A DNA stretch of 64,000 nucleotides from the NCBI RefSeq assembly GCF_013315695.1, contig NZ_CP054353.1; one strand, 5' to 3'. Every line of letters starts with the position of its first letter. Position 1 is the first letter of the stretch. Made by a program: the position numbers and the translations under genes. This DNA comes from Escherichia coli. GTDB lineage: Bacteria > Pseudomonadota > Gammaproteobacteria > Enterobacterales > Enterobacteriaceae. Shown one piece after another: positions 1 through 64,000 of the stretch. Below the pieces are notes generated by a model that was not told where the DNA came from, did no database searches, and saw only the letters and a list, made by a program, of their open reading frames with translations.

Positions 1-40
1 GGATCAACTATCGCAAACGAGCATAAACAGGATCGCCATC

Positions 41-1111
41 ATGCAAAAAGACGCGCTGAATAACGTACATATTACCGACGAACAAGTTTTAATGACTCCG
101 GAACAACTGAAGGCCGCTTTTCCATTAAGCCTGCAACAGGAAGCCCAGATTGCTGACTCGCGTAAAACCATTTCAGATATTATCGCCGGGCGCGATCCTC
201 GTCTGTTGGTAGTATGTGGTCCTTGTTCCATTCATGATCCGGAAACTGCTCTGGAATATGCTCGTCGATTTAAAGCCCTTGCCGCAGAGGTCAGCGATAG
301 CCTCTATCTGGTAATGCGCGTCTATTTTGAAAAACCCCGTACCACTGTCGGTTGGAAAGGGTTGATTAACGATCCCCATATGGATGGCTCTTTTGATGTA
401 GAAGCCGGGCTGCAGATCGCGCGTAAATTGCTGCTTGAGCTGGTGAATATGGGACTGCCACTGGCGACGGAAGCGTTAGATCCGAATAGCCCGCAATACC
501 TGGGCGATCTGTTTAGCTGGTCAGCAATTGGTGCTCGTACAACGGAATCGCAAACACACCGTGAAATGGCCTCCGGGCTTTCCATGCCGGTTGGTTTTAA
601 AAACGGCACCGACGGCAGCCTTGCAACGGCTATTAACGCTATGCGTGCCGCCGCCCAGCCGCACCGTTTTGTTGGCATTAACCAGGCAGGGCAGGTTGCG
701 TTGCTACAAACTCAGGGGAATCCGGACGGGCATGTGATCCTGCGCGGTGGTAAAGCGCCGAACTATAGCCCTGCGGATGTTGCGCAATGTGAAAAAGAGA
801 TGGAACAGGCGGGACTGCGCCCGTCTCTGATGGTAGATTGCAGCCACGGTAATTCCAATAAAGATTATCGCCGTCAGCCTGCGGTGGCAGAATCCGTGGT
901 TGCTCAAATCAAAGATGGCAATCGCTCAATTATTGGTCTGATGATCGAAAGTAATATCCACGAGGGCAATCAGTCTTCCGAGCAACCGCGCAGTGAAATG
1001 AAATACGGTGTATCCGTAACCGATGCCTGCATTAGTTGGGAAATGACCGATGCCTTGCTGCGTGAAATTCATCAGGATCTGAACGGGCAGCTGACGGCTC
1101 GCGTGGCTTAA
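41..1111 (+). CDS. aroF: 3-deoxy-7-phosphoheptulonate (DAHP) synthase, Tyr-sensitive
   Basis: 356-aa ORF recognised as E. coli AroF; followed 10 bp later by tyrA, the known aroF-tyrA operon arrangement. Confidence 0.93.
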
Positions 1112-1121
1112 GAGGTTTATT

Positions 1122-2243
1122 ATGGTTGCTGAATTGACCGCATTACGCGATCAAATTGATGAAGTCGATAAAGCGCTGCTGAATTTATTAGCGAAGCGTC
1201 TGGAACTGGTTGCTGAAGTTGGCGAGGTGAAAAGCCGCTTTGGACTGCCTATTTATGTTCCGGAGCGCGAGGCATCTATGCTGGCCTCGCGGCGTGCAGA
1301 GGCGGAAGCTCTGGGTGTACCGCCAGATCTGATTGAGGATGTTTTGCGTCGGGTGATGCGTGAATCTTACTCCAGTGAAAACGACAAAGGATTTAAAACG
1401 CTTTGTCCGTCACTGCGTCCGGTGGTTATCGTCGGTGGTGGCGGTCAGATGGGACGTCTGTTCGAGAAGATGCTGGCACTCTCGGGTTATCAGGTGCGGA
1501 TTCTGGAGCAACATGACTGGGATCGCGCAGCTGATATTGTTGCCGATGCCGGAATGGTGATTGTTAGTGTGCCCATCCACGTTACTGAACAAGTTATTGG
1601 CAAATTACCGCCTTTACCGAAAGATTGTATTCTGGTCGATCTGGCATCAGTGAAAAATGGGCCATTACAGGCCATGCTGGCGGCGCATGATGGTCCGGTG
1701 CTGGGGCTACACCCGATGTTCGGTCCGGACAGCGGTAGCCTGGCAAAGCAAGTTGTGGTCTGGTGTGATGGACGTAAGCCGGAAGCATACCAATGGTTTC
1801 TGGAGCAAATTCAGGTCTGGGGCGCTCGGCTGCATCGTATTAGCGCTGTCGAGCACGATCAGAATATGGCGTTTATTCAGGCTCTGCGCCACTTTGCTAC
1901 TTTTGCTTATGGGCTGCACCTGGCAGAAGAAAATGTTCAGCTTGAGCAACTTCTGGCGCTCTCTTCGCCGATTTACCGCCTTGAACTGGCGATGGTTGGG
2001 CGACTGTTTGCTCAGGATCCGCAGCTTTATGCCGACATTATTATGTCGTCAGAGCGTAATCTGGCGTTAATCAAACGTTACTATAAGCGTTTCGGCGAGG
2101 CGATTGAGTTGCTGGAGCAGGGCGATAAGCAGGCGTTTATTGACAGTTTCCGCAAGGTGGAGCACTGGTTCGGCGATTACGCACAGCGTTTTCAGAGTGA
2201 AAGCCGCGTGTTATTGCGTCAGGCGAATGACAACCGTCACTAA
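1122..2243 (+). CDS. tyrA: bifunctional chorismate mutase / prephenate dehydrogenase
   Basis: 373-aa ORF; N-terminal chorismate mutase region plus NAD-binding G-rich motif ([11 protein letters not shown]); matches TyrA length and context. Confidence 0.93.
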
Positions 2244-2250
2244 TAATCCA

Positions 2251-2285
2251 GTGCCGGGTGATTCACATCATCCGGCACCTTTTCA
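2251..2285 (+). terminator. rho-independent terminator after tyrA (possibly shared with convergent pheA)
   Basis: Inverted repeat gtgccgggtga...tcacatccggcac followed by cttttc, immediately after the tyrA stop and abutting the pheA stop. Confidence 0.6.
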
Positions 2286-3446
2286 TCAGGTTGGATCAAC
2301 AGGCACTACGTTCTCACTTGGGTAACAGCCCAATACCTTCATCGAACGGGTGATGTCCCCTAACTCTTTCAATGCTTTTTGCATTTCCGCTGATTCAAGA
2401 TTGGCCTGAATATCCAGATAAAACATCTCTTCCCATGGATTACCGTGAATCGGGCGTGACTCCAGACGGGTCATAATCAGATTGTGGTTGCGCAGTACCA
2501 GCAACGCTTCAACCAGCGCACCAGCTTGTTGCCCGGTCGCCATTAACAACGTCGTTTTCGCTGGAACCTGGTCAGACACGTTAATGGCTTTACGTGCCAA
2601 CACCACAAATCGGGTGAAGTTTTGTCGCTGATTCGCTTCAATACGCTCCAGTACCTGCAAACCGTACAAAGTGCCGCCAGCTTCGCTTCCCAACGCAGCA
2701 ACATGCGGTGATTTTGCCTGTGCAACCTTTTCCATTGCCGCAGACGTACTTTCGGTATATTCAATCTTCCAGTGCGGATAACGATTAAGGAATTTGCTGC
2801 ATTGCTGGAATGGCTGCGGATGGCTGTAGACCGTATTGATGGTGGATAAATCAGTAGTGCCGGAGACCAACAAACAATGGTCGATAGTTAACGTCATCTC
2901 GCCAACAATCGACAAACTGGTATGTTGCAGCAGATCGTAAACGTCGTTTATGGCACCGGAGCTGGTATTTTCAATCGGTACGACGGCATAGTCGGCCTGG
3001 CCGGTTTCCACCTGATTAAAAATATCGGCAAATTTGGCGCAGCCACTTTCAATGAATTGCTCAAAGTGACGCGCAGCGTACTGACGAGCGGCAAGATGTG
3101 AATAGGAGCCTTTGGGGCCGAGAAAAGCGATGCGTGCTGAGTGCGGATTAATTTTATTGAGATGTTGCTGGAGCAGTGCCTGCTGAGTTAATACGGAATC
3201 TTCAATGATGAGCTGGAACAGGCGAGTAATGTAATGGGCGTCCAGATGGTGCGCTTTACCGAGCGTAATTAATCTTTCCAGCAAATCGCGTTCGCGATCA
3301 ATATTACGTACCGGGCGATGCGAGAGCAGTTTGGCTTTTCCCACCTCGACGGCCAGTTCGCGTCGCTCTGCCAGTAATGCTAATAATTTTTCATCCAGCG
3401 CGCTGATTTTCTCTCGCAGCGCCAGTAACGGGTTTTCCGATGTCAT
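2286..3446 (-). CDS. pheA: bifunctional chorismate mutase / prephenate dehydratase
   Basis: 386-aa ORF recognised as PheA; preceded on the same strand by the pheL leader peptide and attenuator. Confidence 0.93.
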
Positions 3447-3466
3447 AGTGTTGCCTTTTTGTTATC

Positions 3467-3496
3467 AATAAAAAAGGCCCCCCGATTTGGGAGGCC
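3467..3496 (-). terminator. pheA attenuator terminator
   Basis: On the minus strand GGCCTCCCAAATCGGGGGGCC followed by TTTTTTATT, lying between pheL and pheA. Confidence 0.8.
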
Positions 3497-3544
3497 TTAT
3501 TGTTCGTCTTCGCATTCTGTTTCACACGACGAAACGCCTCCCAT

Positions 3545-3592
3545 TCAGGGGAAGGTAAAAAAGAATGCGAAGAAAAACGGTGTGTGTTTCAT
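3545..3592 (-). CDS. pheL: phe operon leader peptide ([15 protein letters not shown])
   Basis: Reverse complement reads ATG AAA CAC ATA CCG TTT TTC TTC GCA TTC TTT TTT ACC TTC CCC TGA, a 15-codon Phe-rich leader; too short for the ORF track. Confidence 0.9.
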   Translation of the reverse strand: [15 protein letters not shown]

Positions 3593-3646
3593 GTTTGTTT
3601 CCTTAAGTGACTTTAGTACAGTACCCGTACTGTTTTCACGCTGTCA

Positions 3647-3673
3647 ACAAAAAACGCGCCCGAAGGCGCGTTG
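3647..3673 (-). terminator. rho-independent terminator downstream of raiA
   Basis: Minus strand AACGCGCCTTCGGGCGCGTT followed by TTTTTTG, just past the raiA stop. Confidence 0.7.
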
Positions 3674-3695
3674 GCGATACACTCAATATAAAGGA

Positions 3696-4091
<396 letters not shown>

Positions 4092-4284
4092 TCAAAATGT
4101 GTGATGGAAATCTCATAATTTTGTCACTTTTTGTCAACGAATCTTTTTTGTGAGAAATCGCAGGAAGAGGTGTTTTTTACTTGAGGAATATCTCAAAGCG
4201 AGCCATATTTGATGAGATCGATAGTGACTAAATCGCTTCAGTTTCACAACTAACAGAATAAAAAAACGGCAGCTCAAGGGCTGT

Positions 4285-5709
4285 AATGCCAGTCAGTTAA
4301 GCAACTGACTGGCTCTTTTTCGGGGCTGTGGGGTATTTCCAGGGCCTCTCCTTTACCACTCTCGGGAAGGCCCTTTCCCTTCTTGTCGGTAATTTCACAA
4401 GTTGTCCCATACTTGCAAGATCGCGCATCAGCTCCGGTATACGTCCCGGTGAAGCGCCCTGCAATGTCATCAGCATTCTCATCACCATTCCGCATGATTC
4501 TGAGAAACTCAGTTGATTCGGCCAGTAACCTTTCAGATGTTCCGCCATTTTAATCATCTGATATCTCACCAGATTATAAGCCAGTAAGACACCCCACAGC
4601 TCTTGCTCCACAAGCTCCGGTTTTTTACTTCTCAGCGTCAGCCTGCTCAGTTGCATCGTCTGTTTTATCTCCCTGTATCCCAGTTCGATTTCCCAGCGAT
4701 GACTGTACAGATCCGCCATTTCTCCTCCGGGGAAGCGCATGGCGTCCGTCATCGACGTCAGCAGATGGCAGACTTTTCCTTTGCGCGTCACGGTCAGCAG
4801 GCGGGCTGTCACTTCATTTCCCAGTCCCGGCCACTTTTTTCGTGCCTGCGGGCTGGTTTTCAGCTTCACCAGATGATCGCCTTTACCCAGTTTTCTGATC
4901 TCTTCATATTGCGCTCCCTTTCTGAGAGGTATCATCCAGTGGCGGTGTTCTCCCGCCAGGCTCCAGGCATTTAACAGTCCCAGTGAGTAATAACCTTTAT
5001 CCATTAACGTCAGAGTGTTATCGCCGGTTTGTTCTATAAGTTGCTCAGCAAGCTCATTTTCGCTGTTCTTCATCGTGCCGAAGGCTGCAGCCGTCAGCAG
5101 ATGGCTGGTCAGTTCCATCTGGCAGACCATTTTGACCTGCGGGTAGAGCGCCGGGTTCCCGGCATGTGTCTGGCGGGGGAAGGCTGCATCGTTCTCTGGT
5201 GTATCCGGTGTGCGCCAGAACACACCATCGATGGCCAGCAGGGTCAGGCCGCACCAGTGCGGATGCGGCGTGGCGTTATGCCAGAGCTGCGCTGTTTTCG
5301 TGAACACGCGGCGGACAGCCTCACTTCCCAGGCGCTGGCGGGCCTGAATAACGGCACTGGGGGCAACGAAGGGGCGATTGCCCGGCAGCATGATGTCCAG
5401 GCGATTCACAATCTGGTGAAGAGGTTCTTTACGCTCAAGCGCCATGCCAACAATACACCAGACCATCATTTCGAGGGGAAGACGGCGCTTGCGTAGCGTT
5501 ACAGTACCTGATTCGGCAAGGCAACGAGAGATGAGTTCGGGGTCGAGGTAATCCCCCAGAGAAGTCAGTGGGTTACGCAGAGAATCGTAACGGGATACCA
5601 GATCAAGAGCCTGTCCAATGTGCATAAAAAAATCCGGAAACAAGTGAGCGTTTCCGGATTCTTACACAGCCACTGGATCGGTCAACTGATCCTTAACTGA
5701 TCGGCATTA
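4285..5709 (-). mobile_element. IS4 insertion sequence, complete (about 1425 bp)
   Basis: Imperfect terminal inverted repeats TAATGCCAGTCAGTTAAG (left, from 4285) and TAATGCCGATCAGTTAAG (right, reverse complement ending 5709), 16 of 18 identical, enclosing a single DDE transposase ORF. Confidence 0.88.
4297..5625 (-). CDS. insG: IS4 family transposase
   Basis: ORF 4297..5643; recognised as the IS4 transposase, with the likely start at the internal [16 protein letters not shown] (track ORF is 6 aa longer). Confidence 0.85.
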
Positions 5710-5750
5710 CAGCCCGAAGGCTGGCATTTTTAAATCAGATAAAGTCAGAC

Positions 5751-7064
<1,314 letters not shown>

Positions 7065-9000: not shown

Positions 9001-9792
9001 TTAGAGATCAATTTCCTGCCGTTTTACCTGTTGCCAGACTTCTTCCATTGTTTCGAGGTCAACACCTGTCATTTCCAGTCCACGCGCGGCAACAATACGC
9101 TCCACTTCGCGAAAACGGCGCTCGAATTTTTCATTGGCTTTTTGTAGTGCAATCTCTGCTTTTGTCCCTAAATGGCGGGCCATGTTGACCGTGGCAAACA
9201 GCAGGTCACCCATTTCCTCCTCCAGTTTAGCCTGGTCGACAACAGCCTGCCGCGCCTCGTACATCACCTCGTCGATCTCTTCGTAGACTTTATCGACTAC
9301 CGGACCAAGCGTCGTCCAGTCGAAACCAACGTTGGCGCAACGTTTCTGGATTTTTTGCGCACGCATTAAAGCCGGTAAACTACGAGGAATATCGTCCAGC
9401 GCCGAATGCTGCGCTTTCTGCGCGCGCTCTTCGGTTTTGATTTGCTCCCAACGGGCAAGCACTTCACTACTGTTTTCGGCAGAACTGTCAGCAAAAACAT
9501 GCGGATGGCGACGTTCTAATTTATCGCTGATCGCGGCGCAAATATCATTAAAGTCAAAGCGCCCTTCTTCCTGGGCCATTTGTGCGTAAAACACCACCTG
9601 GAACAGCAGATCGCCCAGTTCACCGCGCAGATCGTCAAAATCTTCACGGGCGATGGCGTCCAGCACCTCGTAGGTTTCTTCAAGGGTGTAAGGCGCAATG
9701 GTGGCAAATGTCTGCTCTTTATCCCACGGGCAGCCGTTTTCCGGATCGCGCAGGCGCTGCATAATAGTGAGCAAACGGTCGATTTGATTCAT
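9001..9792 (-). CDS. mazG: nucleoside triphosphate pyrophosphohydrolase MazG
   Basis: 263-aa ORF immediately downstream of mazEF; recognised as MazG. Confidence 0.9.
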   Translation of the reverse strand: MNQIDRLLTIMQRLRDPENGCPWDKEQTFATIAPYTLEETYEVLDAIAREDFDDLRGELGDLLFQVVFYAQMAQEEGRFDFNDICAAISDKLERRHPHVFADSSAENSSEVLARWEQIKTEERAQKAQHSALDDIPRSLPALMRAQKIQKRCANVGFDWTTLGPVVDKVYEEIDEVMYEARQAVVDQAKLEEEMGDLLFATVNMARHLGTKAEIALQKANEKFERRFREVERIVAARGLEMTGVDLETMEEVWQQVKRQEIDL

Positions 9793-9863
9793 TAGAATGT
9801 CCTGAAAATTGCGGGTCTGTCAGGTGGAAACCTGTGACCAGAATAGAAGTGAGTTAGTAACAC

Positions 9864-10199
9864 CTAGCCAATCAGCACGTTAATTTTGGCTTTAATGAGT
9901 TGTAATTCCTCTGGGGCAACCGTTCCTTTCTTCGTTACTCCTCTTGCCCGCCAGGCGATTCTTTTTACCTGATCAGCTAACGCTACGCCATCACGTTCCT
10001 GACCGGATAGAACAACTTCAAACGGATATCCTTTTGATTGCGTTGTACAAGGAACACACAGACACATACCTGTTTTGTTGTTGTACATGAACGGACTGAG
10101 GACAACAGCCGGACGATGTCCGGCTTGCTCGCTACCTTTTGTCGGGTCAAAATCAACCCAAATCAGATCGCCCATATCGGGTACGTATCGGCTTACCAT
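9864..10199 (-). CDS. mazF: toxin MazF (mRNA interferase, ACA-specific endoribonuclease)
   Basis: 111-aa [22 protein letters not shown]...; start overlaps the mazE stop by 1 nt. Confidence 0.93.
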   Translation of the reverse strand: MVSRYVPDMGDLIWVDFDPTKGSEQAGHRPAVVLSPFMYNNKTGMCLCVPCTTQSKGYPFEVVLSGQERDGVALADQVKRIAWRARGVTKKGTVAPEELQLIKAKINVLIG

Positions 10200-10447
10200 T
10201 ACCAGACTTCCTTATCTTTCGGCTCCCCCCAGTCGATATTCTCGTGGAGGTTTTCCGGCGTGATGTCGCTGACCAGTTCAGCAAGCGTAAATACGGGCTC
10301 TTTACGTACTGGCTCAATAATTAATTTGCCATCCACCAGGTCAATCTTCACTTCATCATCAATATTCAGATTGAGCGCCTGCATTAACGTAGCTGGGATC
10401 CGCACTGCAGGAGAATTTCCCCAACGCTTTACGCTACTGTGGATCAT
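10199..10447 (-). CDS. mazE: antitoxin MazE
   Basis: 82-aa [30 protein letters not shown]... (AbrB/SpoVT-type fold), directly upstream of mazF. Confidence 0.93.
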
Positions 10448-10524
10448 AACCCTTTCCTCAAACCGCTATCATATGTAGATACAGTATATATCAATCTACA
10501 TTGTAGATACGAGCAAATTTCGGC

Positions 10525-12759
10525 CTAACTCCCGTGCAACCGACGTGCGTCGATAACATCCGGCACCTGGTTGAGTTTACCCAGCACGCGGCCCAGCACT
10601 TGCAGGTTGTAAATCTCAATGGTCATGTCGATGGTCGCCAGTTGCTGTTTGGTGTCGCTACGGCTGGCAACGCCAAGCACGTTCACTTTCTCATTGGCGA
10701 GAATGGTTGTGATATCACGTAACAACCCACTACGATCATTAGCCACCACGCGGACCACCAGCGAATATCCGGCGGAGTAGCTCTCGCCCCATACCGCATC
10801 AACAATACGTTCTGGCGCATGGGAGCGCAGTTCCGCTAGTTGTTCGCAATCGGCGCGGTGTACTGAAATACCGCGTCCCTGAGTAATGAAACCAACTATT
10901 TCATCACCAGGAATCGGCTGGCAGCAGCGCGCGATGTGGTGCATCAGGTTACCGACACCTTCAACCACCACACGACCGTTATCTTTACTGCGGTTTTGCG
11001 GCGTATAGCTTTTTTGCTGAAGTTGCTTCAGCGCGGCGGCATCCTGCTCTTCGGCACTCGGCTTATTAAATTGCGATTGCAGGAAGTTCACCATCTGATT
11101 GAGACGGATATCCCCGCCACCAATCGCCGCCAGCAACTCGTCGACATCATTGAAGTTGTAACGCGGCAGCAGATGTTTTTCTGCTTCTTTCAGGCTGATC
11201 CCCAGATGTTCCAGCTCGTCGTCAAGGATTTGCCGCCCAGCCAGAATGTTTTTGTCACGGTCCTGTTTACGGAACCAGGCGTGAATTTTCGAACGCCCAC
11301 GGCTGGTTGTGACGTAACCGAGGTTTGGGTTTAACCAGTCACGGCTGGGGTTCGGCTGTTTCTGGGTGATAATTTCAATCTGGTCGCCCATCTGCAGCTG
11401 GTAGGTGAACGGCACAATGCGCCCGCCAATTTTTGCCCCGATGCAGCGGTGTCCGACATCACTGTGGATGTGGTAAGCGAAGTCCAGCGGTGTTGATCCC
11501 GCAGGCAAATCAACGACATCACCTTTCGGCGTAAAGACGTACACCCGGTCGTCAAAGACCTGGCTACGTACTTCGTCGAGCATTTCGCCGGAATCAGCCA
11601 TCTCTTCCTGCCACGCAATCAGTTTACGCAGCCAGGCAATCCGGTCTTCATGTCCCGAACGTGCGCCGCCAGCTGCCGCGCCCTCTTTATATTTCCAGTG
11701 CGCAGCAACACCCAACTCTGCATCTTCATGCATCTGTTTAGTGCGGATTTGGATCTCTACGGTTTTGCCACCCGGCCCCAGAACCACGGTATGAATAGAC
11801 TGATAACCGTTTGGTTTCGGGTTAGCGACGTAATCGTCAAACTCATCCGGCAGGTGGCGATAGTGAGTGTGCACTATCCCCAGTGCGGCATAACAATCCT
11901 GTAAACGCTCGGCGACAATACGTACCGCACGCACATCAAACAGCTCATCGAAGGCGAGGTTCTTTTTCTGCATTTTGCGCCAGATGCTGTAGATATGTTT
12001 CGGTCGACCATACACTTCAGCTTTAACGCCTTCAGCTTTCATCTCAGCGCGCAGATGACCGACAAACTCTTCGATATAGTGTTCGCGGTCGAGACGGCGT
12101 TCATGCAGCAGTTTTGCGATGCGTTTGTATTCGGTCGGGTGGAGATAACGGAAGCAGTAATCTTCCAGCTCCCATTTCAGTTGTCCAATCCCAAGACGGT
12201 TCGCCAACGGCGCGTAGATATTGGTGCACTCTTTTGCCGCCAGTACGCGTTCATCTTCCGGCGCGTCTTTTACTTCGCGCAGATGAGCAATACGCTCTGC
12301 CAGTTTGATGACCACGCAGCGAAAATCATCGACCATCGCCAATAACATCCGGCGAACGTTATCGACCTGTTCGGAGGAAACAGAATCGGTATGCGTCGCT
12401 TTCAGCTGGCGGATCGCCGCCATATCACGCACGCCGTGAATAAGGTTAACGACCGACTTACCGACGCTCTCACGCAGCACATCTTCGCTGACTACGTTGG
12501 CATCGGCCAGAGGGAACAGCAGCGCCGCCCGCAGCGTGTCAATGTCCATACTTAATGTCGAGAGGATCTCCACCATCTCAACACCACGCCACAATAACAG
12601 ACTGGCATCCGGATGCCCCTGCGTCTGTTGCAGACAATACGCCCAGGTTTCGGCTAAGCACTCACACGACTTCTGGCTGGTAATACCCAGACTTGCGATC
12701 CATTTTTCCGGATCAAATTCACCAGCCTTATTGATATGTGCACTTCTTACCGCAACCAT
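10525..12759 (-). CDS. relA: GTP pyrophosphokinase, (p)ppGpp synthetase I
   Basis: 744-aa ORF with HD-like and synthetase domains and C-terminal ACT region; relA-mazEF-mazG order. Confidence 0.96.
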   Translation of the reverse strand: MVAVRSAHINKAGEFDPEKWIASLGITSQKSCECLAETWAYCLQQTQGHPDASLLLWRGVEMVEILSTLSMDIDTLRAALLFPLADANVVSEDVLRESVGKSVVNLIHGVRDMAAIRQLKATHTDSVSSEQVDNVRRMLLAMVDDFRCVVIKLAERIAHLREVKDAPEDERVLAAKECTNIYAPLANRLGIGQLKWELEDYCFRYLHPTEYKRIAKLLHERRLDREHYIEEFVGHLRAEMKAEGVKAEVYGRPKHIYSIWRKMQKKNLAFDELFDVRAVRIVAERLQDCYAALGIVHTHYRHLPDEFDDYVANPKPNGYQSIHTVVLGPGGKTVEIQIRTKQMHEDAELGVAAHWKYKEGAAAGGARSGHEDRIAWLRKLIAWQEEMADSGEMLDEVRSQVFDDRVYVFTPKGDVVDLPAGSTPLDFAYHIHSDVGHRCIGAKIGGRIVPFTYQLQMGDQIEIITQKQPNPSRDWLNPNLGYVTTSRGRSKIHAWFRKQDRDKNILAGRQILDDELEHLGISLKEAEKHLLPRYNFNDVDELLAAIGGGDIRLNQMVNFLQSQFNKPSAEEQDAAALKQLQQKSYTPQNRSKDNGRVVVEGVGNLMHHIARCCQPIPGDEIVGFITQGRGISVHRADCEQLAELRSHAPERIVDAVWGESYSAGYSLVVRVVANDRSGLLRDITTILANEKVNVLGVASRSDTKQQLATIDMTIEIYNLQVLGRVLGKLNQVPDVIDARRLHGS

Positions 12760-23262: not shown

Positions 23263-23622
23263 AATAAAAAAAGGGAGCACTGTATTCACAGTGCTCCCGG
23301 TTCGTTTCGCAGCATTCCAGCTACTTTTGTTGCTCCCTGCTCATCCTTGACAACTTTTCCTCTGGCCTTGCGGCCAATCGTTCATCCTGAACTATTGCTT
23401 CCTGCTCACACCACCCCGATGTGATACTTCATCCTGAAGTGTCCCTGGCCTTCCTGACCCACCGAATCATCCTGACCGGTTCTCATTCTCCATCCTGGAG
23501 GTGTCCTTTAACGCGTCCTGCGTCATCCTCTTCGCTTCATCCAGAAGCCTTTCCCTGAAACACCATCCTGGTGTGTCCTTCAGAAGTGTCATCATCCTGA
23601 TGTTCACTTCGTTGTCTGACTC
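23263..23622 (-). ncRNA. csrB: CsrB small RNA (CsrA-sequestering)
   Basis: Minus strand begins GAGTCAGACAACGAAGTGAACATCAGGATGATG... and ends in GGAGCACTGTGAATACAGTGCTCCC + T-run; many repeated CAGGATG/AGGA motifs (plus strand shows repeated catcctg). Confidence 0.93.
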
Positions 23623-41851: not shown

Positions 41852-42057
41852 ACTTCCTGAGCCGGAACGAAAAGTTTTATCGGAATGCGTGTTCTGGTGA
41901 ACTTTTGGCTTACGGTTGTGATGTTGTGTTGTTGTGTTTGCAATTGGTCTGCGATTCAGACCATGGTAGCAAAGCTACCTTTTTTCACTTCCTGTACATT
42001 TACCCTGTCTGTCCATAGTGATTAATGTAGCACCGCCTAATTGCGGTGCTTTTTTTT
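41852..42057 (+). ncRNA. gcvB: GcvB small RNA (Hfq-dependent)
   Basis: Starts ACTTCCTGAGCCGGAACG a few bp after a TATAGT -10; contains GU-rich block GTTGTGATGTTGTGTTGTTGTGTTTG; ends in GCACCGCCTAATTGCGGTGC + T8 terminator. Confidence 0.92.
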
Positions 42058-46380: not shown

Positions 46381-46457
<77 letters not shown>

Positions 46458-46490
46458 ATTAAAATTTGATGAAGTAAAGCAGTACGGTGA

Positions 46491-46567
<77 letters not shown>

Positions 46568-46600
46568 ATCAAAATTTAATGAAGTAAAGTAGTACGGTGA

Positions 46601-46677
<77 letters not shown>

Positions 46678-46755: not shown

Positions 46756-47712
46756 TCACAACACGTTTTTTATCTCCCTTCCTGCGAAGTAATCAATTAT
46801 CGACTGGGCAACGTGTATCCCGGTTTGCTGGTATGACTCAACGGTGGCTGCCGCGATATGCGGCGTTGTAATGATATTTTTGGCATGTAGCAGTGGGCTA
46901 AATTGCGCCAACGGTTCAGAGCTAAACACATCCAGCGCCGCAAACACATTTCGTTCTTCAATCACCTGAAGTAAAGCGCCCTCATCCAGCAACTTTCCCC
47001 TTGCGGCATTGATGATCAGAGCACCATTGCGCATCATCGACAAATATTTATGACTAATGAAGTTCTCCAGCTCCGGAGAAAATGGCAAAAGAACGATGAT
47101 GACATGAGACTGCATAAAGATATCTTCAATTGATACGAACTGAACTCCATCTTTGCCTGCGGCCTGGAAATCGGGTTGTTTGTCAAAAGCTAAAAGCTCA
47201 ACATCAAAACCAGATAACCTTTTCGCCAGTGTTTTGCCAATATTGCCGTAGCCAAGCAGGCCAATACGTTTACCTTGTAACTCGCAGCCATGCGACTCGC
47301 CCCAATAACCATTTTGCATCGCATGATAGCTACCGGGGATATTTCTCATGCTCGCGAAGATAAGTCCAATGATAAATTCCGCAACCGCATTTGAATTAAT
47401 CCCAACCGCATTATTGACAACAATACCGGATTGCTGTGCCGCACGAAGATCAATATTGTCTATCCCCGTCCCGAATCTCGATATTATTTTCACACCAGAC
47501 AGCAATGATAGCGTGTCCGCCTGATAACAATCTTTTCCGGCGATGACCGCGCAAATAGATTCTCGTAATGCAGTGGATTCTGATTTAAGCAGATGCTCCA
47601 CATTATTCTTAATAATAAGATTAAAATTATTCTCTCTTAGCAACTTGCTGGCGGAAACACAGCGTGCTGAAAAGCTGGGGACGGTGACCAGAACATTTTT
47701 CATAGCTGACAC
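46756..47712 (-). CDS. D-isomer-specific 2-hydroxyacid dehydrogenase family protein (accessory island)
   Basis: 318-aa ORF with NAD-binding GxGxxG (GLLGYGNIG) and catalytic-domain layout of SerA/GhrA-type dehydrogenases; AT-rich codon usage. Confidence 0.75.
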   Translation of the reverse strand: MSAMKNVLVTVPSFSARCVSASKLLRENNFNLIIKNNVEHLLKSESTALRESICAVIAGKDCYQADTLSLLSGVKIISRFGTGIDNIDLRAAQQSGIVVNNAVGINSNAVAEFIIGLIFASMRNIPGSYHAMQNGYWGESHGCELQGKRIGLLGYGNIGKTLAKRLSGFDVELLAFDKQPDFQAAGKDGVQFVSIEDIFMQSHVIIVLLPFSPELENFISHKYLSMMRNGALIINAARGKLLDEGALLQVIEERNVFAALDVFSSEPLAQFSPLLHAKNIITTPHIAAATVESYQQTGIHVAQSIIDYFAGREIKNVL

Positions 47713-47773
47713 TCACTTCAAAGAACGCCACCCCAAAAGATGGCGTGACCGGTTACTGTTTTATATTCTAAAA

Positions 47774-48370
47774 TTATGAGTTTGCTTTAATACCGAGCGC
47801 ACCTCCTGGATGATATAAGCCGAAATCAGCACGAGTAAACTTTTTCAATTCGGAGAGCGCAAGCGCCACCGCATCACCAACAACCAGAACGACTGTTGAT
47901 GAGCATGACGGCGCTAAACCTAAATTATCCGCCTCACTTTTTACGGGAATTTCAACGGATAAATCACAACTTATCGCAAGCGATGAGTGATGACTGCGTG
48001 TAAAAGAGATCAAATAATTACCCATTTTTTTCAGACTAGGCAGTGTCGCCAGGATTTCCGCCGTCTCACCACTGTTTGAAATAAGAATAACAACATCGTC
48101 TTTCGCCACCATTCCAAGGTCGCCGTGTACCGCTTCCGTACCGTGAACAAAAAACGAGGGAGTTCCGGTACTGGCAAAAGTTGCTGCGAGTTTTCTGGCA
48201 ATAATACCGGACTTACCAACACCAATAAAAACAACTTTTCCCTGACAAGATTGTAATACTTTAATTAAATTTGCGACCTCCGAAAGGGGGGAATCAATAA
48301 CTTCTTCAACTGCTTTATATTCGTTACGCATAAAATGTTTAATGAGATGGATAAGATCCGTGCTGTTCAT
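47774..48370 (-). CDS. SIS-domain sugar-phosphate isomerase (KpsF/GutQ-like SIS domain without CBS domains)
   Basis: 198-aa ORF with SIS motifs GVGKSG...SNSGET; closest in memory to arabinose-5-P isomerase or hexulose-6-P isomerase SIS domains. Confidence 0.7.
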   Translation of the reverse strand: MNSTDLIHLIKHFMRNEYKAVEEVIDSPLSEVANLIKVLQSCQGKVVFIGVGKSGIIARKLAATFASTGTPSFFVHGTEAVHGDLGMVAKDDVVILISNSGETAEILATLPSLKKMGNYLISFTRSHHSSLAISCDLSVEIPVKSEADNLGLAPSCSSTVVLVVGDAVALALSELKKFTRADFGLYHPGGALGIKANS

Positions 48371-48372
48371 TT

Positions 48373-49554
48373 TTATTTTCCTTGATTAATATTTTTAATT
48401 ACACTCGCAAGACGCGTAAGCCCCATATATAATTTTTCTCGACCGCAGGCCAGGTTCAGACGAAGGTAGCCCTCCCCCTCCGTTCCATAGACATGCCCCG
48501 CCATAATGCCCACTTTGCCTTCATGAATTAATCGACTGTAAAATTCATCAAAAGGATAACCAATAGCAGAACAATCTATCCAGGAAAAATAGCAACCATC
48601 AGCTGGCCTTACGATCAATTCTGGAATATTTTCATTCAGATACTGCTGGGTGAATTGAATGTTAGAGGCAATATGTACCTTTAATGACTTTAACCATCCC
48701 TCACATTCGTTATAGGCAATAATAGTTGCAATTATATTCAGTACTGATGGGGAGTTTACAAAATCGCGATACCTCGATATCGTTCTGAACTTATGATTAA
48801 AATTATCGTCAGTTGAAATCATATACGATCCTGTTAGTGCAGGAACATTAAATGTTTTCGATATCGAGTTAAATACTACTACTTTTTCTTTTTTTATTTT
48901 AAGCGCGGATGTAAAGCTACGATTAAAAACAAAATCACTATGGATTTCATCTGAACATAACCAGACATTATGCCTTGTACAGCTTGCAGCGATTTTATGC
49001 AGTTCTTCTTCCGACCAGACTGTTCCTGTCGGGTTATGAGGATTACATAATAACACCATCTTTGCGCCTTTAATCTTAAGTTCAAAATCTTGCCAGTTGA
49101 TAGCGTAGCCCCCCTCATTTTTTATAATCAAAGAGGCTGTCAGAATATTTCGCTCGCTATGTTTAATTACATCAAAAAATGCATTATAGACAGGTGTAAA
49201 AACGAGAATATTATCACCATGTGATGTCAATAACTCTATTGCTTTTGCAATAGAGTACATCACACTGGGGCTATAGGTGATCCATTCTGGTTTGATTTCA
49301 GTTTTATATTGTTGATGATACCAGTTTACTATCGCATTCAGATAGTCATCATGCTGCCAACGGCTGTACCCTAAAATCGGGTGTTCCAGACGTTTTCTTA
49401 ATGCCCTGATGATAGCGTCCGGTATCGGAAGATCCATATCTGAAATAGAGAATGGTAATACATCTTTTACACCAAATCTGTCCTCGCAAAAGTCCCATTG
49501 GGTACAATATGTTCCTTTGCGGGAAACAGGAGTATTAAAAACATCCATCAGCAT
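48373..49554 (-). CDS. PLP-dependent C-S lyase / aminotransferase, MalY/PatB family
   Basis: 393-aa ORF that aligns by eye along its length with E. coli MalY (TQWD, LPF.ISDMD, LLC.P.NPTG, SDEIH, SK.FN.PAL). Confidence 0.75.
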   Translation of the reverse strand: MLMDVFNTPVSRKGTYCTQWDFCEDRFGVKDVLPFSISDMDLPIPDAIIRALRKRLEHPILGYSRWQHDDYLNAIVNWYHQQYKTEIKPEWITYSPSVMYSIAKAIELLTSHGDNILVFTPVYNAFFDVIKHSERNILTASLIIKNEGGYAINWQDFELKIKGAKMVLLCNPHNPTGTVWSEEELHKIAASCTRHNVWLCSDEIHSDFVFNRSFTSALKIKKEKVVVFNSISKTFNVPALTGSYMISTDDNFNHKFRTISRYRDFVNSPSVLNIIATIIAYNECEGWLKSLKVHIASNIQFTQQYLNENIPELIVRPADGCYFSWIDCSAIGYPFDEFYSRLIHEGKVGIMAGHVYGTEGEGYLRLNLACGREKLYMGLTRLASVIKNINQGK

Positions 49555-51128
49555 ATCCCCATGTAGTTATCCATATCCCGACGCAAGGCGATGACTTTAG
49601 TACCGATAATGACTTGTAGGGTATTTTGATCAAGTTTAACAACCGCAATCCCGCCAGCTCTTTTTATTGCAACTTCGTCAATCAATCCCATATCTGCGAT
49701 TGTTAAACGTAAACGAGTTACGCAATTATCCAGTGACTTAATATTCTCTTTACCACCAAGTGCCTTAACCATCTGCTCCGCCGCTTGCAGCTCTGATTTA
49801 TCAGGAGTTGGGATATCCGCTATAGCCGTATCTTCGTGAACGTTCAGCGTGACAGGACTGGACTCTTCACGGCCTACGGTCATCAGGTTAAATTTAAGAA
49901 TGGTCCAACGGAACACAAAGTAATAAATGAAGAAATAGGCCACTTCGACACACACCGCGATCGGCCAACCTGTTCTTGTGCCACGCAATACGCCAAAGCT
50001 AATAAATTGAATCAGATCGCCAGTAAATCCCATCTTCACGCCCATATATGGCAGAACCATGTTAGCGAATCCATTCATAAAGGCATGGAAGACAAACAGC
50101 AGTGGACTGACAAATAAGAACAGAAACTCAATCGGTTCGCTGACGCCGCCAATAATCACCGTAAGCACCCCGGAAATAAGCAATGCTTTGATAGCCTTTC
50201 TGTTTTGAGCATGAGCAGTGCGATACATCGCCAGCGCGGCACCAGCCAGACCATACTGAATCATCAGTTTGCCCTGCTCCATTTTCCCCGCCAAATCCAG
50301 CGGAATGACCGCATTCTCTTTAACGTATGCCATAAACATGTTCAGGGTGCCGTAATATTCTTCGCCGCCAATCACAGCCGAACCGCCGATTGGCGTAAAG
50401 CGGAAAACTGACGTCACCAGATGGTTTAAGCCAAAAGGAATCGTCACGCGTTCGGCAACTGCATAGAAGAAATAACCAACAGGACCGGAAGTTGATATCC
50501 AGTGGCCAATGAGCATGAAGAGATTGAAAAACGGCGGCCAGATAAAAGGAATGATCAGACCAAATCCACTCATCACAATCAGTGTAATGATAGGCACCAG
50601 ACGTGGGCCGCTATAAAAACCTAATGATTCAGGAATGCGTAAATTAACGATCTTTTTATACATGCTGGCGACTAATAACCCAGCAACAATTCCCCCTAAC
50701 ACGCTGGTATTGTAGGACTGGATCCCCAGAATGATGGTTTGCCCATGTGTCGACATTTGGTCAGCAGCGACCAATAAGTCGTGCTGTTTAAGATAAAAGT
50801 TCGTTCCCAGATGCATCGCCATAAAACCAATTAAGCCAGAAAAAGCGCCATAGGCTTTATCCTCTTTCTCTTTTAATAATCCTAAGGGAATTGCTATCGC
50901 AAACAATACAGGTAAATTAACAAAGGCAAACAAACCAAGGCTAACAATGAAATCAAGTATGGTTTTAATTATTGGAATAGTCAGAAATGGAATTAACTTT
51001 GCCATATCATCACTGGCTAAACCACTTCCCAGCCCTAGCATCATGCCACATACACTTAGCAGAGCAATGGGATACATAAATGCCTTCCCCAGGCTCTGAA
51101 AAAAACTCCAGGCTTTCTTTTGTTTCAT
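49548..51128 (-). CDS. PTS glucose-family EIICB component, MalX-like
   Basis: 526-aa polytopic ORF with C-terminal EIIB phosphocysteine motif (NCVTRLRL); strong resemblance to MalX/PtsG EIICB. Confidence 0.8.
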   Translation of the reverse strand: MKQKKAWSFFQSLGKAFMYPIALLSVCGMMLGLGSGLASDDMAKLIPFLTIPIIKTILDFIVSLGLFAFVNLPVLFAIAIPLGLLKEKEDKAYGAFSGLIGFMAMHLGTNFYLKQHDLLVAADQMSTHGQTIILGIQSYNTSVLGGIVAGLLVASMYKKIVNLRIPESLGFYSGPRLVPIITLIVMSGFGLIIPFIWPPFFNLFMLIGHWISTSGPVGYFFYAVAERVTIPFGLNHLVTSVFRFTPIGGSAVIGGEEYYGTLNMFMAYVKENAVIPLDLAGKMEQGKLMIQYGLAGAALAMYRTAHAQNRKAIKALLISGVLTVIIGGVSEPIEFLFLFVSPLLFVFHAFMNGFANMVLPYMGVKMGFTGDLIQFISFGVLRGTRTGWPIAVCVEVAYFFIYYFVFRWTILKFNLMTVGREESSPVTLNVHEDTAIADIPTPDKSELQAAEQMVKALGGKENIKSLDNCVTRLRLTIADMGLIDEVAIKRAGGIAVVKLDQNTLQVIIGTKVIALRRDMDNYMGIC

Positions 51129-51159
51129 GTGGGTTATCTCATATAAATGTTATATATAA

Positions 51160-51984
51160 TTAGTCCATTAATACTTTGGTACGAATAGAGAGATATAGTT
51201 TTTCTTCTAAAATTAATTCATATTTAAAAGTGGCATACAGATACCGTTCAATTTCATGAATTGCGCGCTGTAAAAGGATGTCCTTTTCAAGAAACTGTTC
51301 ATAGATATCACCAATATCTTTCTGTTTTATTTTTTCATTGCATAACACGCGACTTGAAAAATATTTAAGGTGTATCATGAACCTGGAATAATTAAATGAA
51401 CTTCTGTCCACCTTTCTGTTATAAACAACTTCAATAAGCCCCGTGATTATTTGCGACAACTCAATAATCCGTACTGATTCATAATCAACTGAATTTTCAT
51501 AATTATTTAAAATATGCAATGCTATAAAACCAATCTCATCATCAGGAAGTTGAACGCTGAATTGCTCATTAATGATAGTTAATGCATCGCGACTTATCGC
51601 ATACTCTGCTTTGTACAACGCTTTGATTTCATCAAGGAAAACATTATTAATTTGTATGCCTGAAGCGACTCTGGATATTGCATTCGAAATGTGATCAGCA
51701 AGAATCAATAGTAGCGATGGATTGAGATTTTTTTCGAGATTGTTCTCCGCATATTGCACTATTTTTTCGGCAACAAAAACATACTCAATATCCACATGTT
51801 CAATCAATTTGTAGAGTTTATTTTTTTGTTCATTTCTGACATAAAAAATCCGGTTAGCCGGATGCTCAGGGACCGACATTCCATATTTTTTGTTGTAACC
51901 GACGCCAGGCCCAGAAATGATAACCTCCTGTCCATTCATCGATGCCTGTACACAATTATTGTTCATGACTTTTTCGATGATCAT
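51160..51984 (-). CDS. BglG/LicT-family transcription antiterminator (CAT RNA-binding domain + PRDs)
   Basis: N-terminus MIIEKVMNNNCVQASMNGQEVIISGPGVGY matches the co-antiterminator domain signature; track ORF starts 19 codons upstream (52041) inside the leader terminator, and GGAG precedes the ATG at 51984. Confidence 0.7.
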   Translation of the reverse strand: MIIEKVMNNNCVQASMNGQEVIISGPGVGYNKKYGMSVPEHPANRIFYVRNEQKNKLYKLIEHVDIEYVFVAEKIVQYAENNLEKNLNPSLLLILADHISNAISRVASGIQINNVFLDEIKALYKAEYAISRDALTIINEQFSVQLPDDEIGFIALHILNNYENSVDYESVRIIELSQIITGLIEVVYNRKVDRSSFNYSRFMIHLKYFSSRVLCNEKIKQKDIGDIYEQFLEKDILLQRAIHEIERYLYATFKYELILEEKLYLSIRTKVLMD

Positions 51985-51995
51985 TCCATGGCTCC

Positions 51996-52068
51996 AAAAA
52001 AAAAGGCAAGGCACGTCAGAAGTAATAACTACTTCAAACATTGCCTTGCCTGATTTAACAGTTACAAG
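51996..52068 (-). promoter_or_regulatory. RAT (ribonucleic antiterminator) overlapping a rho-independent terminator in the antiterminator leader
   Basis: Minus strand CTTGTAACTGTTAAATCAGGCAAG resembles the BglG/LicT RAT consensus (GGATTGTTACTG...CAGGCAAAACC); its 3' half forms the 5' arm of hairpin GGCAAGG...CCTTGCC followed by T9. Confidence 0.6.
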
Positions 52069-55117: not shown

Positions 55118-56944
55118 TTATCCCCGTGAACTAAACAACGCCGCCAGACCGCTGCGCCGCTCGGTGCGCGTGGCAATTGCCGCACTTAAAATGCGCTCAT
55201 CGGCATACAGCGACAGACGGCGACGCGCGCGGGTCACCGCAGTGTAAACCAGCTCTCGTGTTACTACTGGCGTGCGTTGGCTCGGTAAAATCAACGCCGC
55301 ATGGTCGAACTCCGATCCCTGCGATTTATGTACCGTCATCGCCCACGTCGTTTCGTGCTCTGGCAAGCGACTCGGTTGCACAGACTTAATATTGCCGTCC
55401 GGCATCGCAAACCAGACGCGCGTCCCCTGCCCGCGATCCAGCGCAATACCGATATCGCCATTAAACAACCCAAGCGCGCTGTCATTACGGGCAATCATCA
55501 CCGGTCGGCCTTCGTACCAACGAGAGTGCGGATTACGATGAATTTTGCGCTTCTGTTGCATAAACTGCTCAATTCGCTCATTCAGTCCAGCCACGCCAAA
55601 CGGCCCTTCCCGCAGGGCGCACAAAAGCTGGTACTCATTGAACGCCTGAATGATTAAATCCGGCTCGGCACGCGCTTGCAGCAGATCCAGATAACGTCCG
55701 TAACCCGAAAGAGCTTCCTCAAGCATCGCAATATAATCTTCGCCGCTCTGTAAAAGCCGTTTTTCGATATCAGTAAAATCCTGCTGAAAAACGGTTTTCA
55801 CTGCCATTTTATCACCACGGTTAATCGCCGCAGCTAACTGACCAATGCCAGAATCGCTGCCGAAACGATAGCTTTTTTGCAGCAGGCAGAGACTGTCGCG
55901 CAAAGATGCCGCTTCTGTGCCAGTTCCTGACGGAATGTGAGTTCCCGTCAGGCGGCTTAGCTGCCCGGCACGCTCGGCGGTAAAGCCGGCATTGGCATAA
56001 GCACAAATATCGCCCAGCACAGCCCCAGCCTCAACCGAGGCCAGTTGATCACGATCGCCGAGAAAGATCACTCGCGCATGATCGGGCAAGGCGTCTATCA
56101 GTCTCGACATCATCGGCAGATCGATCATTGACGCTTCATCTACTACCAGCACATCAAGATGCAGCGGGTTACCGGCATGATGACGTAAACGCTGGCTACC
56201 CGGCTGTGCGCCCAGCAATCGGTGCAAAGTACTGGCATCTTCCGGAATGCGTTTCTTTTGTTCATCGGTCAGCGGTAACTGGCGCAAAGCCTTGCCGAGA
56301 GATTCGGTTAAGCGCGCGGCAGCTTTACCCGTTGGTGCAGCCAGACGGATACGGCAGCGTTCTCCGTCGGCCATTTGAATTAAGGCTGCCAGCAACTTCG
56401 CTACGGTGGTCGTTTTACCGGTGCCAGGACCGCCGGAAATCACCGAAATCCGCCGCGTCAGCGCCACTGCCGCCGCCACTTTTTGCCAGTTAATGTCATC
56501 GCTTACTGGAAAAAGTTTGTCCAGGGTTTGCGCCAGTAGAGCTTCATCAACCTCAATGGCATGATTCACTTCGTTGAAAAAGCGTGCCACTGTGCGCTCG
56601 TTACACCACATGCGATTCAAATAAAGACGATCGCCACAGAGGATCATCGGCGTTGGTTCATCTCCCCGGCTGACCGCTTGTGAAGCCAGCAAGCATTCTT
56701 CCCAATTTTGTAGCTCACCGATTTCACTGACACAGGTCGCCAACAGCGGATGCGATGCCTCGTTATTTTCCAGTCGTGAAAGCGGCAAACAAACGTGTCC
56801 CTCTCCGGCATCATGACTTAACAGTGCCGCCGCGAGGGTGACGGCAGGATGTTCATCTCCCGCCACGGTCAGGGCAAACTGCACGTCCAGCGGGCGTAGC
56901 TGTTTGTGCTCCACAGCTTCCAGTAATTGCTTTTGCAATTTCAT
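55118..56944 (-). CDS. recD: exodeoxyribonuclease V alpha subunit
   Basis: 608-aa SF1 helicase with Walker A (GGPGTGKTT); follows recB with 1-nt overlap. Confidence 0.95.
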
Positions 56945-59900: not shown

Positions 59901-60486
59901 CGCGCAGTAACGCCTGCGGCCCTTTCCAGGTTTCAAAGACGACCTGGGCAATTTCACGCGGCAGCGGGTAGCAGTGGCGACGCCAGAAATCGGCGCAGGC
60001 CTGGTAACGTAGCAGAGACTCATCTTCAATCAGCTGCTGCTCAAACAGCATGCCGGATTCAAAGGCATTCAGGTTGAGCATGCGCTGGCAAAAGCCGTGA
60101 ATAGTAAAGACTGCCGCTTCATCCATCTGCCGCTCGGCTAACAACAACCACTGCGCGGCTTGCGCTTTATCGTCGATCTCTTCCAGCAGGCGTTTGTACA
60201 GTGGATTGTCGGTGGTTTCACGCAGACAGGCGATGCGCAACTCGTGGATATTGCTACGGATACGACCGCGCAATTCTGCCGTGGCAGCCTCGGTAAAGGT
60301 GACCACCAGCAGTTCTTCAACGGTCAGCGGGCGGGGAAAGGCGGCAGAACCGCCTAGTCCAAGTAACAGGCGCAAATAGAGCGCCGCAATCGTAAAGGTT
60401 TTGCCTGTGCCGGCAGAGGCTTCAATCAGGCGCTCGCCCTGTAAGGGCAAGCGCAAAGGATCTAGTGTCTCGGCGACATCACTCAT
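56944..60486 (-). CDS. recB: exodeoxyribonuclease V beta subunit (helicase/nuclease)
   Basis: UvrD-like helicase ([11 protein letters not shown]) with C-terminal nuclease domain; track ORF starts 3 codons early, probable start [13 protein letters not shown]. Confidence 0.95.
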
Positions 60487-63367: not shown

Positions 63368-63542
63368 TCACGGACCTCATAATCAACTTTATTTTCTGGC
63401 CAGATTCAACACGTTAACGCAAATCATCTGCCAGAATTTAATCTTGTGCTGCACGAGTCAGCCTATGTCTATATATCCATCAGTCCGTGACTGGTGCGCA
63501 TCATAAAGCAAGCAGATATATTGCGCAATTTTTATACAGCAC

Positions 63543-64000
63543 TCATGACTGATTAAAGCGAAACAGCGGTAACAGGAAACGTTGCGACTGTTCAACGATA
63601 GCCTCCATTGTCTCTGGTGTTAATTGCCGCCAGAGCCGTTGATACCAGATATCATCACCTTCGCCACGCACCATCATGTTGCCTTCGTAAGCCTGAAGGA
63701 ATTTCGTACGGGCTTTTTGCAACGTGGAATCGTCATCCAGCATGGCATCGTTTTGCGCGTCATAACAGGTTTTTAGCCACGCGCCGCCACTTTCAGGTAA
63801 CACCAGCAATGGCGCGGACATTCCTTCACGATACCCCTCAATCAGTTGTGAGAGGTAATGCAAAGCCTGTTCGGCTGCAAGCGGCGGAAAACGCCACTCG
63901 CCGTCTTTGCGTAGAAAAAGGCGACTTTCACCATTACCACCGCTGGCACAGTAGACAAGGTGTTCCAGCCAAAGTTGCATTCCCTGCGCCACACTTAATA
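63543..64000 (-). CDS. recC: exodeoxyribonuclease V gamma subunit, C-terminal portion (gene continues beyond window end)
   Basis: Open reading frame on the minus strand from the window edge to the stop at 63543; recC-ptrA-recB-recD order. Confidence 0.85.
   Translation of the reverse strand, partial: LSVAQGMQLWLEHLVYCASGGNGESRLFLRKDGEWRFPPLAAEQALHYLSQLIEGYREGMSAPLLVLPESGGAWLKTCYDAQNDAMLDDDSTLQKARTKFLQAYEGNMMVRGEGDDIWYQRLWRQLTPETMEAIVEQSQRFLLPLFRFNQS

Follow-up and report, generated by a model that had tools for sequence, protein, structure and literature searches.

Does the gene pair between relA and mazG in this Escherichia coli chromosome form an intact toxin–antitoxin module, and can it be expected to behave like the K-12 pair at the same site? 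We addressed this question in a 64,000-nucleotide stretch of contig NZ_CP054353.1 (hereafter the window), for which an original prediction, made without database searches, had proposed a mazEF type II module. Positions 9864–10447 almost certainly hold the canonical chromosomal type II module mazEF (chpA) of E. coli, intact and at its usual relA–mazG site. Four consecutive genes occur on the minus strand in the order relA, mazE, mazF, mazG. The list of open reading frames and the sequence define mazE (10199–10447, minus strand) as a gene for an 82-residue antitoxin and mazF (9864–10199, minus strand) as a gene for a 111-residue toxin, each with an ATG start. The upstream gene relA (10525–12759, minus strand) codes for GTP diphosphokinase ((p)ppGpp synthetase I, 744 aa), and the downstream operon partner mazG (9001–9792, minus strand) codes for a nucleoside triphosphate pyrophosphohydrolase (263 aa), both assigned from the list of reading frames and from profile matches.

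These flanking assignments are secure. RelA and MazG both match NCBIfam equivalog profiles over their full length. RelA scores 1678 bits against NF008124 (residues 1–744 of 744), contains the Pfam domains HD_4, RelA_SpoT, TGS and ACT, and carries the accession WP_000226815.1, which is common to the window and a K-12-like strain. MazG matches the Pfam family MazG (E = 2.2e-39) and the NCBIfam profiles TIGR00444 (418 bits) and NF007113 (369 bits). Positions 4261–64000 of the window are 99.98–100% identical to complete E. coli genomes such as NZ_OZ547117.1, and in RefSeq a genome with 100% identity is annotated with these four genes under the same names and at the same coordinates. With reading frames, profiles and annotation in agreement, the proposed location between relA and mazG was confirmed, and the coordinates and strand logic of the original prediction proved to be exact. 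Its wording of a relA–mazG stringent-response operon is right as to position; the term operon is historical in this case, and the module has its own promoters P2/P3 (PMC4803016). A review writes the operon as relA–mazEFG (PMC7167474).

To identify the pair, we searched both proteins against curated profiles of the MazF/PemK and MazE families, and both scored above the cut-offs over their full length, as expected for the type II module that had been claimed. MazF reaches 82.7 bits against the Pfam family PF02452 (PemK_toxin; cut-off 23.1) and 223.8 bits against the NCBIfam equivalog NF007386 (endoribonuclease MazF; cut-off 120; residues 1–111 of 111; E = 2.6e-67). MazE reaches 52.9 bits against PF04014 (MazE_antitoxin; cut-off 24.7) and 194.3 bits against the equivalog NF007312 (antitoxin MazE; cut-off 113; residues 1–82 of 82; E = 2.6e-58). 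MazF aligns end to end with the crystallized E. coli protein (PDB 3nfc, 1ub4 and 5ck9; best E = 3.4e-72), from which it differs only by the substitutions S80R and A88V. MazE aligns with PDB 1mvf and 1ub4 (E = 2.1e-51) with the single substitution N60S. The second MazEF-like pair of E. coli, ChpBI–ChpBK (ChpS–ChpB), belongs to the same protein families and gives weak NCBIfam matches: 52.5 bits for ChpB (cut-off 129) and 35.1 bits for ChpS (cut-off 101). Since these scores lie far below the cut-offs, we can eliminate the possibility that the pair is chpB, which resides at a different chromosomal locus from mazEF.

The closest characterized system is MazE–MazF (ChpAI–ChpAK; PDB 1ub4, 1mvf, 3nfc, 5ck9/5cr2) of E. 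coli K-12. The two modules share the locus, the protein lengths (82 and 111 aa) and a one-nucleotide gene overlap; the window proteins are 98–99% identical to those of K-12, and the upstream spacer and operator are identical. Besides the three substitutions in MazF (S80R, A88V) and MazE (N60S), the differences from K-12 include four in a 75-bp region that corresponds to the promoter of the antisense RNA aMEF. MazF from this locus is described as a dimeric, cofactor-independent endoribonuclease that cuts single-stranded RNA at ACA (PMC10864209, PMC4803016, PMC8749433, PMC7167474). The literature on the same locus describes cleavage products with a 2',3'-cyclic phosphate and a 5'-OH end, and a consequent block of translation. 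The protein has the PemK/MazF endoribonuclease fold and retains the catalytic residues Arg29 and Thr52, which are invariant in our homologue alignment and have been reported to sit at the scissile phosphate (PMC10864209). MazE combines an N-terminal DNA-binding domain of the AbrB/SpoVT type with a C-terminal tail that binds MazF, and is known to be proteolytically labile via ClpP and Lon (PMC10864209). Because both proteins are 98–99% identical to characterized ones, we infer that MazF of the window would cleave RNA at ACA independently of the ribosome and would be neutralized by MazE. The genes themselves are not depleted of ACA triplets: mazE contains 2 (4.4 expected) and mazF contains 8 (5.6 expected). 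Therefore, MazF could cut its own transcript, an activity which is the topic of PMC5888573.

Frameshifts or truncations would be signs of a decayed module. In comparison with a K-12-like allele, we found no internal stop, frameshift or truncation in mazE or mazF, and both proteins are of full length, with two substitutions in MazF and one in MazE relative to K-12. The two genes together differ from K-12 mazEF at 18 nucleotides, 15 of which are synonymous. Relative to the K-12-like strain (L005), mazE contains seven changed codons (six synonymous, plus N60S), and mazF contains eleven (nine synonymous, plus S80R and A88V). Given full-length genes, equivalog matches, the absence of internal stops and mostly synonymous differences, a pseudogene or truncated module can be rejected. 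Being intact, the module is presumably active.

The junction of the two genes provides a second recognizable feature. Antitoxin and toxin genes share a strand, with the antitoxin gene directly upstream, and the predicted overlap of one nucleotide can be read from the sequence as TAATG (10197–10201, minus strand). Within the junction GTCTGGTAATGGTAAGC, the last A of the mazE stop codon TAA, at position 10199, also serves as the first base of the mazF start codon ATG. A Shine–Dalgarno-like AAGGAAG (10207–10213, minus strand; AAGGA at 10209–10213) inside the 3' end of mazE is located 8–14 nucleotides upstream of this ATG and probably serves as the ribosome-binding signal of mazF. A corresponding GAGGA at 10455–10459 (minus strand) may play this role for mazE. 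The same one-nucleotide overlap (TGATG or TAATG) occurs in homologues of 50–73% identity from plasmids of Pantoea and Pectobacteriaceae and from Pantoea phage G19, and in the plasmid and phage homologues a conserved AAGGA motif precedes the start by an equal distance. Since overlap and motif recur in these distant relatives, mazE and mazF are likely coupled in translation through TAATG.

The DNA on either side of the pair matches what is known about its regulation. The 77-bp spacer between relA and mazE (10448–10524, minus strand) is 100% identical to that of the K-12-like locus. Promoters P2/P3 and the operator have been located upstream of mazE (PMC4803016). Positions 10473–10508 (minus strand) contain two inverted repeats, I1 and I2, which share one arm: the middle arm (10494–10501) is complementary to both the arm at 10502–10508 and the arm at 10473–10480. 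These arms match the published "alternating palindrome" operator, in its a/b/c description by Marianovsky et al. (2001) as summarized in PMC4803016, and mark the predicted binding site. P2/P3 are repressed by MazE and more strongly by the MazE–MazF complex, and are activated by FIS, which binds further upstream (PMC4803016). The promoter fragment "Sense_MazEF" of PMC8749433 corresponds to positions 10551–10477 of the window with 74 identities in 75 positions, and the single mismatch falls within relA. A consensus scan for promoters returned a single weak sigma-70-like site that overlaps the mazE start; fewer matches were found than in shuffled sequence, and the scan is uninformative. On the other side, the 71-bp spacer between mazF and mazG (9793–9863, minus strand) contains no terminator-like site on the minus strand, and its predicted fold is not more stable than that of shuffled sequence (z = -0.46). 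This observation is consistent with the published co-transcription of mazEFG (PMC4803016).

A further regulatory element lies inside mazF. The antisense RNA aMEF starts within this gene and promotes the synthesis of MazE and MazF (PMC8749433). By comparison with the oligonucleotide used in that study, the homologous 75-bp promoter region maps to positions 10085–10159 on the plus strand. This region is identical to the K-12 oligonucleotide (PMC8749433, Data Set S1) at 71 of 75 positions, with an unchanged -10 part, and to the "Shig" version from the same study at 74 of 75. One natural difference, an A>G exchange 38 nucleotides upstream of the aMEF transcription start site, is among the five silent mutations with which the promoter was knocked down in PMC8749433. 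Because of this coincidence, the balance between MazE and MazF could differ from that in K-12. An Rfam scan of the whole window detected no RNA family that overlaps mazEF. We also noted a stop-free antisense frame of 146 codons with a TTG start (10038–10478, plus strand), which spans mazF and mazE and overlaps the region of the aMEF transcript. This frame is open in all eight alleles compared, an observation without weight because these alleles are approximately 97% identical. Long antisense frames are common in the window, as exemplified by one of 331 aa opposite eno.

According to the original prediction, no other defence or stress-type module could be seen in the window. This remark was loose, being weakened by the presence of relA, raiA (3696–4037), barA and a block that comprises recD, recB and ptrA together with the end of recC (55118–64000, minus strand). 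The RecBCD nuclease complex has a recognized role against phage DNA. The accessory genes that we scanned gave no defence match. A search against PADLOC-DB 2.0.0 returned no family that matches MazF, MazE or MazG at E ≤ 0.001, and a scan of raiA, recD and a five-gene accessory island described below gave no system-specific match, RecD being recognized only by generic helicase-type models. The null result for MazEF reflects a catalogue without a matching model and does not show that MazEF is incapable of anti-phage action. Since PADLOC offers no such model, labelling mazEF as a defence module rests on the literature.

Outside the mazEF locus, the first part of the window has an unusual arrangement. 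Positions 1–4260, with aroF, tyrA, pheA, the Phe leader and raiA, are joined to eno through a copy of IS4 (terminal inverted repeats at 4262–4301 and 5692–5731; transposase at 4297–5643). In the closest complete genomes, raiA and bamD are separated by one IS4, and a second copy in inverted orientation, at a distance of about 167 kb, separates ygcG from eno. Because of these two inverted copies, the arrangement of positions 1–5731 looks like an inversion by IS4 recombination, or like an assembly join across IS4 copies. In one further genome, TW10690, the match extends over the full query of positions 1–5800 at 98.6% identity, which suggests that this genome carries the same raiA–IS4–eno junction. 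In NZ_OZ547117.1 an annotated CRISPR array (L001, 1008–2074) lies between ygcE and queE, just past the eno-side IS4. A repeat search in positions 1–5800 of the window detected no CRISPR array, and we reject one at this place, positions 1–4260 being a different region joined through IS4. The array of the closest genomes is absent from the window because of the IS4-associated rearrangement. Further downstream, a five-gene accessory island for sugar utilization (46756–52041, minus strand) lies between three tRNA-Met genes (46381–46677) and amiC. It codes for a PRD-domain regulator, a PTS EIIC component, a MalY/PatB-family protein, a KpsF/GutQ-like isomerase and a phosphoglycerate dehydrogenase, and 1686 of the 5426 complete E. 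coli genomes carry it. Rfam models located the small RNAs CsrB (23263–23622, minus strand, 382.9 bits) and GcvB (41852–42057, plus strand, 199 bits) and the Phe leader (3468–3593, minus strand, 132.2 bits).

With the components identified, the molecular mechanism of mazEF is near certain, as judged from work on the same locus. MazE would bind MazF and neutralize the toxin, while MazE, and more strongly MazE–MazF, would bind the alternating palindrome to repress P2/P3, with FIS acting as activator. When MazE synthesis falls, free MazF would accumulate and cut RNA at ACA, with a block of translation as the outcome. The downstream gene mazG would be co-transcribed, and aMEF would modulate the output of mazE and mazF. 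MazG is considered part of the operon, with an activity tied to ppGpp levels (PMC4803016). What this mechanism is for is a different matter. Programmed cell death, specialized ribosomes, persistence and exclusion of phage P1 are among the disputed roles of mazEF (PMC7167474). The candidates under debate are growth arrest or death in response to stress, abortive infection as a protection against phage P1, and a selfish addictive insert, and the present sequence does not discriminate among them.

The distribution of the cassette bears on this debate. Of 5426 complete E. coli genomes, 4415 (81%) carry the mazEF cassette with both flanks. The relA–mazG site is empty in 1001, which include Nissle 1917 and ETEC6333. 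That mazEF may be present or absent, with relA–mazG as an undisturbed operon in UTI89, had already been described (PMC7167474), and our counts put numbers on a polymorphism which reviews had noted. In the empty site the spacer between relA and mazG measures 95 bp (positions 701–795 of both L003 and L004). Following relA, about 50 bp form a strong hairpin (-30.4 kcal/mol, z = -4.76) with a 12-bp stem (GCUGGAUAUGGC/GCCGUAUCCAGC) and a U-rich tail, after which the sequence shared upstream of mazG resumes. This hairpin looks like a terminator of relA, as judged from its predicted fold, and mazEF-positive strains contain the cassette in its place. We found no copy of the cassette on E. coli plasmids. 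The nearest plasmid-borne MazF proteins are 72–73% identical and are encoded on mobilizable and conjugative plasmids; the nearest phage-borne protein, from a Pantoea phage, is 50% identical. The only near-identical MazF in the plasmid collection (96.4%) belongs to NZ_OL790696.1, a record whose length, 4.8 Mb, almost certainly marks it as a misfiled chromosome. Known relatives on plasmids and phages comprise MazEF/PemIK modules of Pantoea dispersa megaplasmids, Citrobacter freundii pF1917-3, Pectobacteriaceae IncFII plasmids and Pantoea phage G19, as well as Kis–Kid/PemIK of R1/R100. They resemble the window module in the order of antitoxin and toxin, in the stop/start overlap or abutment with AAGGA, and in the conserved MazF residues R29, T52, D76 and Q77. 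They differ from it by their low identity (MazF only 50–73%, MazE 41–54%) and by their residence on mobile elements instead of at relA–mazG. Even Kid (PDB 1m1f) is detectable from the window MazF (E = 2.9e-08).

It is quite possible, if somewhat short of probable, that the module is intact but selfish: a horizontally acquired addictive cassette in the relA–mazG spacer, functionally unconnected with either the stringent response or defence, that persists because its loss is costly. The many empty sites, in which relA is followed by a terminator-like hairpin and then by mazG, and the MazF homologues on mobile plasmids and in a phage speak for this reading. The same case is argued in PMC7167474, based on the undisturbed relA–mazG of UTI89 and on the absence of a fitness defect upon deletion of five toxin–antitoxin systems. 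However, the cassette is intact in 81% of the genomes, its divergence is mostly synonymous, and published observations link mazEF to P1 infection load and to ADP-ribosylation of MazF by T4 (PMC7167474, PMC4803016). These last observations would fit a module that acts mainly in anti-phage abortive infection, with phage shut-off of host expression depleting the labile MazE and thereby freeing MazF. P1 infection loads are higher when mazEF is deleted (PMC7167474), and MazF is a target of ADP-ribosylation by phage T4 (PMC4803016). We consider this second proposal rather unlikely, given that no PADLOC model exists for MazE, MazF or MazG and that the neighbours of mazEF are the housekeeping genes relA, mazG, pyrG and eno and not a defence island. 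The idea of a selfish cassette concerns only the role of the module and leaves the molecular mechanism uncontradicted.

A third objection is directed at function instead of role: the substitutions S80R and A88V in MazF and N60S in MazE may weaken or alter the module by changing RNA binding, specificity or the affinity between toxin and antitoxin. The closest differing allele of mazF (IAI39) differs at four nucleotides, two of these differences being non-synonymous, and S80R introduces a charged residue three positions past the conserved D76–Q77 motif, which studies on homologues place near the RNA (PMC10864209). In another MazF, a neighbouring position sets the specificity for the third base (PMC10864209). 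By motif spacing, and not by direct alignment, Leu74 is the apparent counterpart of this specificity residue, and it is unchanged in the window. A paper on the MazEF pair of Klebsiella makes no mention of S80 or A88. In alignments with homologues from plasmids and phages (50–73% identity for MazF, 41–54% for MazE), the substituted positions are variable: MazF column 80 contains S, C or N, MazF column 88 contains V, I or A, and MazE column 60 contains S, D or A, with V88 and S60 common among the homologues. Every invariant residue is conserved in the window proteins, among them E24, R29, T52, T53, D76, Q77 and R86 of MazF. V88 is shared with E. fergusonii and one further Escherichia species, and R80 with other E. 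coli. Exactly this MazE and exactly this MazF are each encoded on at least 1000 public contigs. Among eight alleles compared, the K-12 MazF protein is the form in most strains, and R80/V88 is a minority allele: at ≥99.9% DNA identity, no more than five complete genomes have it. Taken together, these data render an impaired or altered allele very improbable, and we infer that the mazEF allele of the window behaves like the K-12 allele.

The mazEF module in the window is already known and presents no new component, arrangement or mechanism. As mazEF is among the most studied toxin–antitoxin loci, the present copy has little significance of its own. Natural aMEF promoter alleles that differ at an experimentally mutated base could help to test how aMEF tunes mazEF. 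There is a slim chance that R80 and V88 of MazF, S60 of MazE and the A>G exchange in the aMEF promoter together set MazF activity, RNA preference or the MazE:MazF ratio to values unlike those in K-12. If true, this combination of alleles would represent a natural functional variant of a system that is usually treated as uniform.
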